Assembly: GCA_937871295.1 (NCBI GenBank)
Contig: CALMRE010000219.1
Span: 174-64,173, forward strand
From: an uncultured bacterium
Lineage (GTDB): Bacteria > UBP6 > UBA1177 > JAKLFG01
DNA length: 64,000 nt
Reading direction: 5' to 3'
Shown here piece after piece: positions 5,428 to 19,881 of this stretch. Position numbers and translations under genes: made by a program. The first letter of the stretch is position 1. Each line of letters opens with the position of its first letter. The notes under the pieces are model-generated. The model was not told where the DNA came from, ran no database searches, and worked only from the letters and a program-made list of their open reading frames with translations.

Positions 5428-6428
5428 GTGGAGTTAAGACAGTTCTGTATCTTGCGTATCTTTTCCAGCATGCGGGAGAACTGGGAGAAATTGAGCGACT
5501 GGAAGCCGTCGGAAAGGGCGTTGGAGGGGTCGAAATGGATCTCGACCATGAGCCCGTCAGCACCGAGCAGTACCGCCGCCTCGCTGACCGCCGGGATATA
5601 ACGGGCGACACCCACGCCGTGCGACGGGTCGAGCAGTACCGGCAGGTGGGAAAGATCCTTCAGCATCGGGATGGCGGCCATGTTCACCGCGTTGCGGCTC
5701 GCGTCGTCGAAGGAGATGGAGCCGCGTTCGCACAGGATGACATTCTCATTGCCTTCGAGTAGCACATATTCGACCGAGAGCAGGAAGTCCTCTATGCGGG
5801 CCGAAGGCGCCCGCTTGATAAGAAGAGGTTTGCCGCTTTTGCCGAGTTCCCGCAACAGGGTGAAGTTGTACATGTTCCGCGCGCCGACCTGTATGATGTC
5901 GACATGTTCGAGGAATAGGTCAAGGCTCCGCAGGTCGACGATCTCGCTCACGCTCTTCATGCCGTAGCGGCGGGCCACCGAACTCAGGATGCGCAGGCCC
6001 TCGTCGCCGAGCCCCTGAAAACTGTAGGGCGAGGAGCGCATCTTGTAGGTGCCGCCCCGCAGGAGTTTGATGCCGAGGCTCGAAAGGAACGCGGCGATGC
6101 GGTCGAACGATTCCTCGCTTTCGACACTGCAGGGACCCGCGATGAAGCGGAAATCGTCGCCGATGCGCACGCCGTCGCCGAGATCGACGATGGTTCTCGG
6201 GCGATATTCCTTGGTCACCATGTAGTAGGGACTGGAGATGCGGAGCACCTTGTCGACCCCGTCGATCGAACGGAACCGGCTGATATCGCTTGCGGTAAGA
6301 TCGCCGAGGACCGGGATGACGGTGTATTTGACCCCTTCAAGCACATTATACTGGAAGCCGCCGGCCATCAGACGGCTGCGCACATCCTCCAGCACCTCTT
6401 TTCGGTCGCGTTTAAGAACGATGATCAT
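5418..6428 (-). CDS. 3-deoxy-7-phosphoheptulonate (DAHP) synthase, class I-beta with N-terminal ACT/ferredoxin-like regulatory domain
   Basis: DAHPS/KDO8PS family core motifs are present: LDPSHGVG, KRAPS, GPCSVES. The N-terminal extension resembles Thermotoga-type regulated DAHPS. The gene overlaps the downstream PLD gene by 10 nt. Confidence 0.8.
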   Translation of the reverse strand: MIIVLKRDRKEVLEDVRSRLMAGGFQYNVLEGVKYTVIPVLGDLTASDISRFRSIDGVDKVLRISSPYYMVTKEYRPRTIVDLGDGVRIGDDFRFIAGPCSVESEESFDRIAAFLSSLGIKLLRGGTYKMRSSPYSFQGLGDEGLRILSSVARRYGMKSVSEIVDLRSLDLFLEHVDIIQVGARNMYNFTLLRELGKSGKPLLIKRAPSARIEDFLLSVEYVLLEGNENVILCERGSISFDDASRNAVNMAAIPMLKDLSHLPVLLDPSHGVGVARYIPAVSEAAVLLGADGLMVEIHFDPSNALSDGFQSLNFSQFSRMLEKIRKIQNCLNSTCC

Positions 6429-9826: not shown

Positions 9827-10693
9827 TCACGGTATCAGGTAACTTCTACCCTTTTTCACCACCAGTCCTTCGGTGCACAGTTCGCCGAGTATCTTCGTGA
9901 AGCGGGCCTCATCGAGCGCCTCGATCTTAAGGTCGAGCGCCGCGGCGGCCGAAAGCCGTTTTTCAGTGAGCGCTCCTTTTGCCAACGCGCGGAGTATCGC
10001 GCCACGGAGCTGACGGTCGCTTCCCTCGAAGCGCGACTGCCGGGTATGATGCGCCGAACGGCGCGAAGGGTTCGGATGAAGTTTCTTCAGATGAACGCCG
10101 TAGTCCATCAGCGCGTAATACCAGCGGCGCGGATCATCGCGGTCAAGGGTCGAATCGATGAGCGGCATCAATTCGCGGTCGCTCACCTTTTCCCGGCCGG
10201 GGAAGAAATGGTGCAGATAAACGGCGCGGATGTTGGTCTCGATAAATATGTGCGGCTGGTTGTGGGCGAAGGTGAGGACGGCGCGGGCGGTGTAGGGGCC
10301 GATGCCGGGAAGGGCGGTCAGCGCTTCGATGGAGTCGGGGAGGATGCCGCCATGCCGCGTCAAAGTGGCCTCGGCGCATTTTTTGAGGAAAAGCGCCCGC
10401 CGGTTGTAGCCGAGTCCCTGCCAGAGGGCGAGCACCTCGCGCAGGGGGGCGGCGGCAAGCGTCGCGATGTCGGGGAACCGCGCGATGAAGCGGGGGAAGT
10501 AGGCGGCGACGCGGTCGGTACGGGTCTGCTGGAGCATCACCTCCGACACGAGTATCTCGTACGGATCGGTCGTGAGACGCCAGAGGAAACTGCGGCCGTG
10601 TTTCTCGAAGTGGCCGAGCACCGTTTCGCGGAAATGTCGTATCTCGTCGCGTCTCATGGGGAAGGGTATACCGGAAAAAGAAGGGGAGGTCAA
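9827..10693 (-). CDS. HhH-GPD base-excision DNA glycosylase (MutY/Nth-like N-terminus, no Fe-S cysteine cluster)
   Basis: EVMLQQTRTDRV, HhH LPGIGPYTARAV and a catalytic-Asp region are present. The C-x6-C-x2-C-x5-C cluster is absent. The true start may be at M13 (10657). Confidence 0.6.
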   Translation of the reverse strand: MTSPSFSGIPFPMRRDEIRHFRETVLGHFEKHGRSFLWRLTTDPYEILVSEVMLQQTRTDRVAAYFPRFIARFPDIATLAAAPLREVLALWQGLGYNRRALFLKKCAEATLTRHGGILPDSIEALTALPGIGPYTARAVLTFAHNQPHIFIETNIRAVYLHHFFPGREKVSDRELMPLIDSTLDRDDPRRWYYALMDYGVHLKKLHPNPSRRSAHHTRQSRFEGSDRQLRGAILRALAKGALTEKRLSAAAALDLKIEALDEARFTKILGELCTEGLVVKKGRSYLIP

Positions 10694-10752
10694 CAGAGTA
10701 TTGTTGCCTTACACCGCCGCCTGCGCTACTATCGGCCGGTAACGGAGGGGCC

Positions 10753-11889
10753 ATGACGGGAACCGGCATCTACATCCATATTCCCTTTTGCGTGTCGCGC
10801 TGCGGTTACTGCGATTTTTTCTCGACGGTGCCGAAGGCGGGCGAGATCAAGGCGGCCTACGGGGCGCAGGTGGTCGCGGTGCTGAAAAAAGAACTCGCGA
10901 CGGTGTCGGCCGAAGAGATCGTTTCGCTCTACATCGGCGGCGGAACCCCATCGACGATGCCGGGGCGCTTCTTCGCCGCCGTCGGGCGGGCGTTGGCCGC
11001 TGCGAACATCGATACCGATAAGATAGAATTCACCGTCGAGACGAATCCGGCCGATGTCACCGCGCCGTTCCTGCGGACGCTCAAGAAATGCGGCGTCAAC
11101 CGGCTCTCGCTCGGCACCCAGTCAGCCGACGATGCGGTGCTTAAAGCGATGGGACGCCGCGCGTCGCGGGCGATGCTCGCCACGGTGCTGCCGCTTGCGC
11201 GCAAGGAGTTCGGCAATATCTCCTACGATATCATCTATGGTTTCGGGAAACGGCCGCGCGATCTGGCGGCGGAACTCGGCTGGCTTTTTGATCTCGCCGT
11301 GCCCGACCATGTTTCGACCTACTGCTACACCCGGCCTGAGCGGCCCAAGGCGCCGCGTCTTGCCGCCGAGGATACCGTGACGGCGGAGGAAGAGGCGATC
11401 CACCGGTTCCTCGCCGCCCGCCGGTTTTCCCGCTACGAGGTGAGCAACTGGGCGCGCCGCGGGTTCGAGAGCGTCCACAACCGTCTCTACTGGTCGTGGG
11501 ACCGCTACATCGGCATCGGCGCCGGGGCGCACGGCTTCACCCCGGCCGACGGGGTCCGCTACCATTATCCCGAGTCGGTCATGGCGTTCATAAAGGACCC
11601 GCTGCCGGTCGTGGAGCGCTCACCGCGCGATGTAAAGATGCGCGAGTTCGTGATGATGGGACTGCGTACGAAAGAGGGGATACGGCTCGCGCAGTTCAGG
11701 AAACTCTTCGGCGTCGACATCGCCGCAATCATGTCGGTGGTCACGCGGGAACGCTTTATTGACGCCGGATACGCGACACTCACTAAGACGCGGCTTGCGG
11801 CGACTACGCGCGGGTTCGACCTGCTCAACAGTTTTATCTGCGCACTCTTTGACGACATCGAACGCTACGCGAGGGGCCATGAAAGATAA
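10753..11889 (+). CDS. hemW: Radical SAM heme chaperone HemW / HemN-like
   Basis: IYIHIPFCVSRCGYCDF gives the CxxxCxxC radical-SAM motif near the N-terminus, with a HemN C-terminal domain. Confidence 0.8.
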   Translation: MTGTGIYIHIPFCVSRCGYCDFFSTVPKAGEIKAAYGAQVVAVLKKELATVSAEEIVSLYIGGGTPSTMPGRFFAAVGRALAAANIDTDKIEFTVETNPADVTAPFLRTLKKCGVNRLSLGTQSADDAVLKAMGRRASRAMLATVLPLARKEFGNISYDIIYGFGKRPRDLAAELGWLFDLAVPDHVSTYCYTRPERPKAPRLAAEDTVTAEEEAIHRFLAARRFSRYEVSNWARRGFESVHNRLYWSWDRYIGIGAGAHGFTPADGVRYHYPESVMAFIKDPLPVVERSPRDVKMREFVMMGLRTKEGIRLAQFRKLFGVDIAAIMSVVTRERFIDAGYATLTKTRLAATTRGFDLLNSFICALFDDIERYARGHER

Positions 11890-17359: not shown

Positions 17360-17767
17360 TCAGGTCGGGATATATTCGTTCTTGTCCGATTTCCAGATCA
17401 GATAATCGCGGTACTCCTTGTCGATGAGGTCGGAGTTGCCGCTGTTGTAGACCATGATATTGCGCAGGAAGATGAAGGAGTCGAGTTCAAGATCGCGCAA
17501 CTGGACCGCGAAACCGTCGGTATCCTTGCGCGCCACCGTCCCCTTGACCGTCACCCCCATCTCGGAGTGTTCGCTCGACAGTTCGAGCCGCACATCGACC
17601 GCGGTCCCCATCGCCAGTTCGGGACCCTTCGCGAAGTAGATGCCCGAAAGACTCAGGTTGCGCACCTCGCACGGGATCTCGGCGCCGTTATGAAGTATCC
17701 GGGCGGCGACCTCGAAGTCGACCCGTGAAAGCATCCGTTTGACCATCACACCACTCGTAGTGAACAA
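17360..17767 (-). CDS. PilZ-domain protein (putative c-di-GMP binding)
   Basis: RMLSR (RxxxR) is followed after about 19 aa by NLSLSG ([D/N]xSxxG). Confidence 0.5.
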   Translation of the reverse strand: MFTTSGVMVKRMLSRVDFEVAARILHNGAEIPCEVRNLSLSGIYFAKGPELAMGTAVDVRLELSSEHSEMGVTVKGTVARKDTDGFAVQLRDLELDSFIFLRNIMVYNSGNSDLIDKEYRDYLIWKSDKNEYIPT

Positions 17768-17811
17768 CTAACGCCCGCATACTATATGCGCCGGAACGGT
17801 TTGTCAACAAA

Positions 17812-17844
17812 CAGAGGGGTCAGTCCTCGACATTAGACATTTCT
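17812..17844. repeat. Left terminal inverted repeat of the RAYT-like element
   Basis: 33 bp; 32/33 reverse-complement match to 18863-18895. Confidence 0.6.
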
Positions 17845-17849
17845 CTGCT

Positions 17850-18806
17850 CTATTTCGACAAGTTGTGATCGATAGTCGCCGCGATATCCCGCAGTCGTTT
17901 GTTCTGTGTCATGGCTTCATCCAAGCGCCCCGTCAGCTTGGAAACTGCCTGTCCCTTCATATCGAAACGCGCGCCGATCTCCGCCAAGGAGCCCGCTCCG
18001 TGCCGCCGCAGCGCCCACAGGTACCACTTGAACGAATCGTCGCCGCGCCGTTTCTCGATGGGCGCGCCCTCTTTGAGCTTCAGCGCCTTGCGCACCGCCG
18101 CCGCTACCGCTTCTTCGCTTCCGGCCAGCAGTCGCCGCGCCTCGGGCATATGCGCCACCGGCGTTTCCCGCAGGCGCACCTTCATCTCGTCCACGAAATC
18201 TTCGCCGCCGAGCAGCGAGTTCGCGCCGTAGATGCTTGCGGCGTCGGGTTTGCGCCTCCATACCTCGTCGATGATGGCGAGGTAGTTCTTCCGGCCGCCG
18301 CAGAGTTTCATGACCTCGTCGGTGGTCACCGTGAGCGTCAGTTCGTTCTTCTTCGCGGGCGGGTTCTTGCCGATGTAGTGCGCCATGCTCGACCACCGCC
18401 ACGCTTCGGGGCTTTTCACCAGCCCGGCGCGCACCGGATTGAGGTGGATGTAGGCCGACACCGTCGCGAGGTAGCGTTCCTCCTCGACGAGCACCGACTT
18501 GAAGCGGCCTTGGAACAGCGATCCGACGAGTTGATGCCGCGCCCGGTACCACGATGCGTAACTTGAATTGAGAGTATGCATCGCCCGCGAGAGGTTGGCG
18601 TCGGGGGTGCCGACGAGCAGGTGGTAATGGTTGTCCATCAGGCAGTAGCCGTGCACGACGAGGTTGAACCGTATCTGTACGACGGCGAGGCGCCCGAGGA
18701 ACTCTTCGCGGTCCTTGTCGTCGGTGAAGATCGCTTCGCGGCGGTGTCCGCGGTTGATGACATGGTAGAGCGCGTTCTCATACGCGAGGCGCAATGGGCG
18801 GGCCAT
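17850..18806 (-). CDS. IS200/RAYT-like HUH (Y1) transposase fused to a DnaA C-terminal-like HTH domain
   Basis: HUH motif HGYCLMDNHYHLL. The IS200-like C-terminal helix YIHLNPVRAGLV is present. The C-terminal roughly 120 aa is helical and DnaA-domain-IV-like. Confidence 0.7.
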   Translation of the reverse strand: MARPLRLAYENALYHVINRGHRREAIFTDDKDREEFLGRLAVVQIRFNLVVHGYCLMDNHYHLLVGTPDANLSRAMHTLNSSYASWYRARHQLVGSLFQGRFKSVLVEEERYLATVSAYIHLNPVRAGLVKSPEAWRWSSMAHYIGKNPPAKKNELTLTVTTDEVMKLCGGRKNYLAIIDEVWRRKPDAASIYGANSLLGGEDFVDEMKVRLRETPVAHMPEARRLLAGSEEAVAAAVRKALKLKEGAPIEKRRGDDSFKWYLWALRRHGAGSLAEIGARFDMKGQAVSKLTGRLDEAMTQNKRLRDIAATIDHNLSK

Positions 18807-18862
18807 GGATTCCTCCGTCGGTCAGTACGGCGGAGAGATATCAGAACGATCAACTCAAGTCA

Positions 18863-18895
18863 AGAAATGTCTTATGTCGAGGACTGACCCCTCTG
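18863..18895. repeat. Right terminal inverted repeat of the RAYT-like element
   Basis: 33 bp. It contains an in-frame ATG (18874) for the downstream znuA-like ORF. Confidence 0.6.
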
Positions 18896-18957
18896 CATTG
18901 ACTATCCTTCTTTCCTCTGCTATTGTGGCGGGCGTATGTGGTAATGGTGAGGACAAC

Positions 18958-19881
18958 TTGCAGAAAATTGTCTGGATAACGATCCCTCTTCTGATCGTCG
19001 GTGTCATCGGTTGGCTCATCTTCGTCAATGCCGACCGGGCGAAACCCGCCCGCGCTGCGGCGACGGTCGCTCCGCTGCAGGTGCACGAGGGGCCAACGCC
19101 CGTTTTCGTCTCCATTCCGCCGCTGAAATATATCGCCGAACGGATCGGCGGCGACCGGGTCACGGTCACCGCGTTGGTCCGCCCGGGAGCAGATCCGCAC
19201 ACTTTCGAGCCGTTGCCCGATCAGATGGCGGGGTTGTCGACGGCGAAATTCTTTTTCCTTGCCGGCGATCCTTCGGAACTGGCGTGGCGCGACAAGGTGC
19301 GCGGTTCGTACCCCGATCTTACTTTCATAGAGACCGGCGCCGCCGTCATCAAGCGGCCGGCCGATGGAGAAGAGGAGCACCACGGCGGCGTCGATCCGCA
19401 CATCTGGCTGGCGCCCGAGCTGTTGCGCATTCAGGCCCGTTCGATGGCGGCGGTCTTCATGACGGCCGACAAGCCGAATGCGGCCTATTACAAGGAACGG
19501 CTCGATGTCTTTACCGTCGCGATGGATGCGCTCGACGGCCGGATAAAGGAGTTGCTCGCGCCGTACAAGGGGCGCAGTTTCATCGTGTTCCATCCCTCGT
19601 GGGGCTATTTCGCCGACGCCTACGGCCTGAAACAGGTGCCGATCGAGATGGCGGGCAAGGGGCCGGGGGCGCGTCATCTGGCGGCGGTGACCGACATCGT
19701 GCGGCGTGAAAAGGTTTCCGCGATCTTCGCCGCCCCGCAGTTCCCGGTAGGCGAGGCGCAGTCGGTCGCCGACGCGACCGGGGCGAAGGTCGTTACGATC
19801 GATCCGCTCGCCGAGGATGTCGAAAAGAATCTTTCGGCGGTCGCCGACGCGCTTCTTGCGTCGTTCGGAGGGAAGAAGTGA
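18958..19881 (+). CDS. znuA: Metal (Zn/Mn) ABC transporter substrate-binding protein, ZnuA/TroA family
   Basis: Signal anchor IVWITIPLLIVGVIGWLIF; TroA-like His/Asp metal ligands (DPHIW, HPSWGYF). A TTG start at 18958 with SD GGTGAGGA is proposed. An alternative ATG at 18874 lies inside the right inverted repeat. Confidence 0.6.
   Translation: MQKIVWITIPLLIVGVIGWLIFVNADRAKPARAAATVAPLQVHEGPTPVFVSIPPLKYIAERIGGDRVTVTALVRPGADPHTFEPLPDQMAGLSTAKFFFLAGDPSELAWRDKVRGSYPDLTFIETGAAVIKRPADGEEEHHGGVDPHIWLAPELLRIQARSMAAVFMTADKPNAAYYKERLDVFTVAMDALDGRIKELLAPYKGRSFIVFHPSWGYFADAYGLKQVPIEMAGKGPGARHLAAVTDIVRREKVSAIFAAPQFPVGEAQSVADATGAKVVTIDPLAEDVEKNLSAVADALLASFGGKK

Follow-up and report, generated by a model that had tools for sequence, protein, structure and literature searches.

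The 64,000-nucleotide (nt) stretch of DNA analysed here, which we call the window, comes from an uncultured bacterium (GTDB lineage Bacteria; UBP6; UBA1177; JAKLFG01; assembly GCA_937871295.1, contig CALMRE010000219.1, positions 174 to 64,173 of the forward strand) and carries, between pilZ and the znuABC genes, a unit of about 1.08 kb that we consider likely to be a TIRtron: a single TIRYT gene, of TnpA_Y1 subclass 2.1 in its long form, together with two inverted cognate sites on which its product would act by the mechanism proposed below. The names go back to Di Nocera et al. (2013, PMC3733652), who call RAYT-like genes flanked by long inverted repeats TIRtrons and the encoded proteins TIRYTs. 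The parts of the unit are given here in window coordinates; loci from other genomes and metagenomes are referred to by our own labels (L and a number), and L117/L118 are relatives in which the same site is empty.

17808-18896, no strand: greatest extent of the insertion, 1089 nt when compared with the empty site of L117/L118.
17812-17844, no strand: terminal inverted repeat (TIR) on the 3' side of the TIRYT gene, from the pair search, shuffles and the anatomy of 54 arms; it reads CAGA, then the outer box GGGGTCAGTCCT (17816-17827), CGACATT (17828-17834) and AGACATT (17835-17841).
17850-18806, minus strand: TIRYT gene, 318 residues, Pfam Y1_Tnp.
18835-18863, minus strand: candidate TIRYT promoter, with a -35 box TTGACT (18863-18858), a 17-nt spacer and a weak -10 box TATCTC (18840-18835).
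18863-18895, no strand: TIR on the 5' side of the TIRYT gene, from the pair search, shuffles and family anatomy; on the minus strand it reads CAGA, GGGGTCAGTCCT (18891-18880), CGACATA (18879-18873) and AGACATT (18872-18866).

The two 33-nt arms are complementary at 32 of 33 positions, and a search of the whole 64 kb that allowed up to three mismatches recovers those two arms alone, with no match in 100 shuffled sequences; the initial annotation, which described a Y1 gene bracketed by 33-bp inverted repeats with one mismatch, was right on this point. Within the unit, the 5' tip lies 85 nt from the start codon and the stop codon 34 nt from the 3' tip, the TIR itself beginning 5 nt past the stop codon, and a ribosome-binding site, GGAGG, stands at 18816-18812. 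As read from the sequence, the -35 box of the TIRYT gene overlaps the inner edge of the 5' repeat; the consensus scanner missed this candidate promoter because its -10 box is weak. Rfam gave nothing relevant. That the repeats form a transcription terminator shared by the neighbouring genes, or a chance palindrome, is exceedingly improbable: the complementarity of the arms, and nothing further, speaks for it, whereas the arms stand 1018 nt apart, positions 17650-19050 contain no terminator-like site, the flanking genes point away from the element and not toward it, the shuffles yield no such pair, and the pair is conserved together with the gene across phyla.

This last point rests on relatives retrieved with their flanks, comprising close homologs of 63-92% identity and, among the matches listed, distant ones of 32-40% from Aminicenantes, Nitrospirota, Desulfobacterota, Omnitrophota, WOR-3, Armatimonadota and several Gammaproteobacteria. 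In a scan of reference genomes the matches listed were relatives of 40% identity or less. A flanking inverted pair of 15-34 nt that starts with GGGGTCA accompanies the gene at all close loci and at 24 of the 25 testable full-length distant loci, where the pair scores are 15-28 against shuffle maxima of 8-14; the sole full-length locus of the 25 with no detectable flanking inverted repeat is L021 (2945-3871), in an Omnitrophota metagenome-assembled genome. Measured over 30 loci, the units span 917-1083 nt from tip to tip, with 35-103 nt between the 5' tip and the start codon and -3 to 41 nt between the stop codon and the 3' tip. The stop codon is commonly within or just ahead of the 3' repeat; in most members it falls 4-22 nt from the tip, so that the last codons of the protein are encoded by the TIR. 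Gene and repeats therefore travel as one unit across many phyla. The family is also very large: when 1.84 billion representative sequences were searched with a profile, 9,870 clusters (at 50% identity) reached E <= 1e-30, and among the top 150 hits almost every one shares the architecture of about 320 residues. Carriage by plasmids, phages and viral contigs is negligible, with one of 72,556 plasmids giving a match at 80% coverage or more, one phage record giving a weak partial match, and two viral contigs matching in the catalytic core alone.

The repeats have a two-part anatomy, computed on 54 non-redundant family arms, in which a conserved outer box of 12 nt, GGGGTCAGnnCT, is followed by two locus-specific 7-nt direct repeats. 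In the outer box G2, G4, T5, C6 and A7 (G.GTCA) are invariant and positions 11-12 (CT) are 96% conserved, while positions 13-26 form the tandem repeats: an offset of 7 brings 62% of positions into agreement, while other offsets give 25-38%, and the 236 matches at offset 7 compare with 117 +/- 8 in shuffled arms. The inner 14 nt are specific to the locus, 11.2 of 14 being identical between the two arms of one locus and 5.6 of 14 between loci; in the window the inner repeats are CGACATT-AGACATT. As single strands the arms fold no better than shuffled sequences (z -0.5 to +1.0), and they are therefore neither REPs nor hairpins of the IS200 type, in agreement with the initial annotation, which had set the inverted repeats apart from IS200-type hairpin ends; the GTAG/CGTC tag is not found in the window repeats either, where the tag is GGGGTCAG. 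A TTGAC hexamer marks the inner edge of the 5' arm, and not that of the 3' arm, in most family loci, for which reason the 5' repeat is likely to be an operator of the TIRYT gene's own promoter.

The 318-residue open reading frame (ORF) matches Pfam Y1_Tnp with an E-value of 1.4e-14, and its HUH motif (H60 and H62) and the tyrosine Y119, in YIHLNP, are invariant in an alignment of 40 family sequences. Its plan comprises an HUH/Y1 nuclease (about residues 1-145), a helical middle and a DnaA-domain-IV-like helix-turn-helix (HTH) domain (about residues 230-318). The earlier description of the protein as a fusion with a DnaA C-terminal domain is borne out for the family and not by Pfam on the window protein, in which Bac_DnaA_C is not significant and the sole hit in the HTH region is a weak one to the MarR_2 HTH (E 0.0065): many homologs of 35-47% identity combine PF08299 with PF01797, and a profile of 40 family members aligns, over its C-terminal 90 residues or so (profile positions 223-315), with DnaA domain IV structures in the PDB at E ~1e-6. 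The window repeats are nevertheless unlike the DnaA box TTWTNCACA, as was found for TIRYTs by Quentin et al. (2018, PMC6006769). Exact-protein look-up returned no match for the window protein or for its homolog P0001.

An AlphaFold model of the window protein (mean pLDDT 88, pTM 0.76) finds its top fold match in the PDB in 4er8, the complex of E. coli TnpA_REP with a REP hairpin (E 2e-6, TM score 0.75 on the target), followed by the TnpA proteins of ISDra2 and IS608. The relationship to these last two, the Y1_Tnp domain and a chemistry that presumably involves single-stranded DNA are what the element shares with the IS200/IS605 group of insertion sequences (ISs; IS608 and ISDra2 TnpA), yet it is very improbable that it is an ordinary IS of that type, moving by peel-and-paste via subterminal hairpins. 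Such ISs lack TIRs and have subterminal hairpins; their TnpA counts 130-150 residues, they occur in many copies and they often include a tnpB gene. Here, by contrast, long TIRs stand in place of the hairpins, the protein, with its extra domains, has twice the length, multiple identical copies are not found and a TnpB partner gene is absent. TIRYT copies that share metagenome samples are 77% identical to one another, and the window holds no paralog, which is not the multicopy pattern of IS200/IS605-type elements.

Comparison by blastp with the named proteins of Additional file 5 of PMC3733652 points to the TIRYTs. Ten of the 12 named TIRYTs tested match the window protein with E-values of 5e-33 to 6e-22, most being 35-43% identical across the catalytic core, and the two Koribacter TIRYTs match worse (aba_3477, E 3e-16; aba_1552, E 2e-7); the named RAYTs give E-values of 3e-10 to 4e-4, so that by this measure the window protein is much nearer the named TIRYTs than the named RAYTs. 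As in the TIRtron of Di Nocera, De Gregorio and Rocco (2013, BMC Genomics 14:522), a RAYT-like HUH/Y1 gene stands at fixed short distances between long TIRs that are not REPs; the available part of that paper gives the TIRs a shared motif, GGGGWSAS, into which GGGGTCAG in both window arms fits, and describes the elements as usually single-copy, with some TIRs forming moderately abundant families of solo, dimer or cluster copies. The TIRYTs in its alignment have 216-238 residues, and the window protein, with 318, is therefore a longer form to which the HTH domain of about 90 residues has been added. Most TIRYTs were placed in TnpA_Y1 subclass 2.1, which was equated with them, by Quentin, Siguier, Chandler and Fichant (2018, BMC Genomics 19:475), whose subgroup 2.1.2 holds long Y1 proteins with a C-terminus resembling Bac_DnaA_C, HTH_23 or HTH_28, or a shorter HTH, and no REPs nearby. 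Assignment of the window protein to 2.1.2 would rest on its architecture and on the TIR motif.

Comparison of the pilZ-znuA junction among relatives supports the earlier statement that the element is an insertion there, and reveals three states of the site: empty, full and miniature. L117 and L118, which keep the synteny of the window from ATP-synt_C to MlaE, have a ZnuA 91% identical and a nucleotide identity of 92.8% to the window over 10.5 kb, and carry no element, window positions 17360-17807 aligning with L117 5108-5555 and window positions from 18897 onward with L117 from 5582 onward. Between these two blocks L117 (GCA_964412895.1, 5556-5581) has 26 nt, TGAAAGGGGCCGGTCGGCCGTCGTTT, with no counterpart in the window. 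One stretch in them, AGGGG..GTC, faintly recalls the tip of a TIR, and they may be ancestral sequence, a solo TIR that has degenerated or a footprint. In the more distant L120 (JGI 3300037810, Ga0376277_0244487; ZnuA 76% identical, about 83% nucleotide identity) both repeats lie at the junctions of the window, with 57 nt between them, in a miniature of 120 nt (539-658) that has no gene, is predicted to fold as a near-perfect hairpin with a 31-bp stem (-45.9 kcal/mol, z = -12.3) and would be much like a REPIN. Of L117 and L120, it is the former, with its empty site, to which the window is nearer, and the simplest history would therefore be one in which the common ancestor had the element, the L117 lineage lost it and the L120 lineage deleted its interior; the alternative is independent insertion at the same site, and the site is dynamic on either account.

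Beyond this site, homologs 69-92% identical to the window protein occupy four different gene neighbourhoods. The window copy lies between pilZ and znuA; homologs of 92%, 84%, 84% and 77% identity (L123-L126, L006, L008 and L001) have a ferredoxin/POR operon on one side and an MMPL gene on the other, a location to which we refer as the Fer4-MMPL home site; another homolog of 77% (L002-L004) lies between leucine-rich-repeat genes and purH, and one of 69% (L005) adjoins relA/spoT. A metagenome scan with the 18-mer GGGGTCAGTCCTCGACAT returned 28 stretches, and in one assembly, ERZ1645192, there are 12 copies exact over the full 26-34 nt, on 11 contigs with coverage of 6.2-7.9x. Two of these copies are the ends of a home site, and the solo copies (L089, L090, L092, L096, L099, L102, L104, L105, L106, L108 and L114 in this assembly, and also L111) have unrelated flanks on both sides and no partner within several kilobases; tblastn finds no TIRYT gene on the solo-repeat contigs, and 11 of 13 sites analysed are cleanly intergenic. 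Most solo TIRs have the 'A' variant (CGACATAAGACAT), as in the 5' arm of the window. The search for further repeat copies that the initial annotation had proposed thus returns none in the window, while a related metagenome population has it scattered about as solo copies, and because of that dispersal the repeat is neither unique to this locus nor free of signs of mobility.

Dispersal is nevertheless sparse, for in about 463 kb around 30 family loci nearly every locus has just its two flanking copies, which is unlike classical REPs and bears on the label REPtron, under which the element had been annotated. A genuine REPtron, in which a RAYT protein is flanked by REPs dispersed at high copy number (E. 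coli TnpA_REP/RAYT with REP-BIME; Nunvar 2010; concept as cited in PMC6006769), would have the cognate sites inverted around a RAYT-like gene, the single-copy gene with dispersed short derivatives and the REPIN-like miniature doublet that we find, together with a catalytic fold nearest 4er8 and a hit, below threshold, to the NCBIfam model NF047646 REP_Tyr_transpos. We consider it unlikely all the same and withdraw the label, the layout being that of a TIRtron: REPs are palindromic hairpins of 20-40 nt with a GTAG tag and hundreds of copies, whereas the window arms are neither palindromic nor folded (z ~0), bear GGGGTCAG in place of GTAG/CGTC and have no extra copy in the 64 kb, nor, local duplications aside, in about 400 kb around 29 family loci; the RAYT model scores 73.5 bits against a cutoff of 80, the named RAYTs match far worse than the named TIRYTs, and the window protein has two extra domains relative to TnpA_REP.

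It is quite unlikely, too, that the protein is a fixed, non-mobile DNA-binding regulator or nuclease for which the repeats are merely operator sites. Such a protein would fit with the HTH domain, with the overlap of the gene's -35 box and the 5' repeat in most loci, with a gene that is usually single-copy and with a Fer4-MMPL position kept in several relatives. The 3' repeat, however, has no promoter to regulate and yet is nearly identical to the 5' repeat, and neither the empty, full and miniature alleles, nor the four contexts, the dispersed solo repeats and the invariant HUH and tyrosine residues, are what a fixed regulator would lead one to expect.

The mechanism that we propose for the TIRtron is one that we infer from its anatomy and from population genetics. 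The HUH/Y1 domain would nick and rejoin single-stranded DNA at or beside the conserved outer box at the tips, and the HTH domain would tether the enzyme to the variable inner 7-nt repeats in duplex form, either as ordinary DNA or as the 33-bp stem of the paired arms. Nicking and rejoining would occasionally move the whole unit or yield miniature or solo derivatives, in a manner comparable to a RAYT with its REPs and REPINs, and the TIRYT gene would probably be repressed when the enzyme binds the 5' repeat, with which the -35 box of that gene overlaps. Divergence within the close clade is consistent with this division of labour: the C-terminal domain is 63-70% identical between proteins whose inner repeats are shared and 28-44% identical where they differ, while the N-terminal domain is 85-97% identical. 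The gene itself is a mosaic in this respect, the N-terminal half being 87-89% identical in nucleotides between the window (17963-18829) and L001, L002 and L008, with a C-terminal third and TIR inner repeats in those same homologs that cannot be aligned with the window, a pattern that suggests either an exchange of modules or a rapid divergence of HTH domain and repeats together.

Several points weigh against the TIRtron reading and its mechanism. Family-wide, once the close clade is removed, the similarity of the inner repeats correlates with the N-terminal domain (partial r 0.31, p 0.0008) and less with the C-terminal one (partial r 0.11, p 0.11); this pattern does not single out the C-terminal domain, and the assignment of the HTH domain to the 7-mers is therefore tentative. 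The empty site is not the clean product of an excision or insertion, having 26 unrelated nt and no target-site duplication, and the window contains no second copy of the TIRYT gene or of the repeat. That the ERZ1645192 contigs come from one genome is something we infer from their similar coverage alone. GGGTC within 60 nt outside the tips, at 4.4 per kb against a background of 0.83, is five-fold enriched, which might be taken as a sign of activity at the tips, and this enrichment is driven largely by L006 and L022. Our search of the literature, finally, in which the term occurred in the two works cited above and in no other, found no functional study of any TIRYT.

The neighbours of the element, confirmed by our analysis, and the host signals that abut it are the following.

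17360-17767, minus strand: pilZ (PilZ domain).
17779-17807, minus strand: host sigma70-like promoter toward pilZ, TTGACA-17-TAGTAT, 4 nt outside the left repeat and outside the element.
18898-18926, plus strand: host sigma70-like promoter toward znuA, TTGACT-17-TG-TATTGT, 2 nt outside the right repeat and outside the element.
18958-19881, plus strand: znuA from its probable TTG start, 307 residues.
Other side of the element from pilZ, plus strand: genes for ZnuA, an ABC ATPase and an ABC-3 permease.

A scan of 17650-19050 finds these two sigma70-like sites in total, both facing outward and both abutting repeats. Both -35 hexamers are kept in the empty site of L117, where they lie 27 nt apart, and the hexamer facing pilZ is also kept in L120; the znuA promoter is conserved in L117, L120 and the outgroup L119. 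Because the hexamers stand in the empty site, the promoters are host signals, and the possibility that they are parts of the element was rejected on this ground and on the ground that the outer flanks of other loci are unrelated. The element thus sits exactly between two back-to-back host promoters, both intact. Downstream, the right repeat does contain an ATG in frame with znuA (18874-18876), as had been annotated, and the TTG at 18958, 62 nt past the repeat, holds up as the likelier start: the region, which the empty site also keeps, is conserved as TTG/GTG-CAR-AAA followed by a signal-anchor sequence, gene calling starts the ortholog of L120 at the corresponding TTG (307 residues), L119 has there GTG-CAA-AAA-TTC-GTC-TGG, and the DNA before the start, as far back as 18897, is conserved promoter sequence. 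Since the DNA upstream of 18897 is absent from the empty allele, the ATG at 18874 and the 358-residue ORF that runs from 18805 are read-through artefacts, and the ATG in the repeat, being element DNA, is not the ancestral start of znuA. In L117 the automatic ORF likewise extends znuA, to a GTG at 5610 that overlaps the -10 box (318 residues). The inner repeat (GAAATGT) resembles a Zur box, a likeness that was dismissed in view of the same repeat flanking the element at the unrelated site of L006. The suggestion that the insertion had remodelled the znuABC promoter or 5' end is accordingly abandoned; as judged from the conserved host sequence in L117, L120 and L119, the core promoter and 5' end of znuA are not remodelled, and what was displaced is the sequence upstream of the -35 boxes alone.

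A number of loci have rearranged ends. Tandem partial copies of an end lie outside the tips in L006 (2145-2230) and L007, about six GGGGTCAT units lie outside the tip in the downstream flank of L022, and stutter copies of the tip (GGGGTCA...) just outside the ends also occur in the flanks of L009, L013, L035, L061 and L081. The cultured gammaproteobacterium Paraglaciecola sp. MB-3u-78 (NZ_PJCF01000003.1; L047, 9903-11474), which could be used as an experimental system, has a TIRYT ORF at 10286-11266 that is preceded by five direct TIR copies and followed by four, tandem duplications of 144 nt and 105 nt among them. In L098 (Ga0172363_10230947, 138-1125) a TIRYT copy (78% identical) is cut at residue 287 by a second TIR that is direct and not inverted, with unrelated sequence beyond it. 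At the Fer4-MMPL home site, L001 (6765-9940) and L123 (6344-9941) have, immediately upstream of the TIRtron, a cassette of 3.1-3.5 kb between two direct TIR copies; these cassettes encode RHS/YD-shell proteins with DUF6794 or ankyrin proteins, and look like a polymorphic toxin with its immunity gene, while L008 has the same site with no cassette. Two diverged TIRtrons, with the proteins P0006 and P0121 (the latter 92% identical to the window protein), occur in the same samples at L002/L003 and L124/L126 (JGI 3300025706 and 3300010429), and since their accessions are close (HOW51443 and HOW52692) they are probably paralogous TIRYT/TIR pairs of one genome, with differing inner repeats.

A further reading, which we hold to be rather doubtful, takes the TIRYT and its bipartite TIR not for a selfish transposon pure and simple but for a system of site-specific DNA capture and rearrangement. 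Cutting by the enzyme would take place at the invariant GGGGTCAG box and rejoining between any two cognate TIRs, and through the variable 7-nt repeats every paralog would have a set of sites private to it. If true, such a system would account for the direct TIRs that bracket RHS/YD-shell cassettes beside the home-site element in two genomes, for the direct TIR that replaces the 3' end of a gene and for the tandem arrays of ends, as well as for the diverged TIRYT/TIR pairs that share metagenome samples.

Elements of this kind are already described and functionally unstudied. The available part of Di Nocera et al. 2013 makes no mention of the bipartite TIR, of the locus in three states or of RHS cassettes bounded by TIRs, and the bipartite repeat, the -35 box of the gene overlapping its 5' repeat and the adjacent RHS cassettes are unmentioned in either TIRYT paper, to the extent that their texts were available. 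In practice, annotation of the locus should treat as an artefact the long ORF that reads out of the element into znuA; the expression signals of znuA are left unaltered by the element. For a family as large as the TIRYTs, spread over many phyla, the series of three alleles, the solo repeats and the two-part repeat are starting points for biochemistry.

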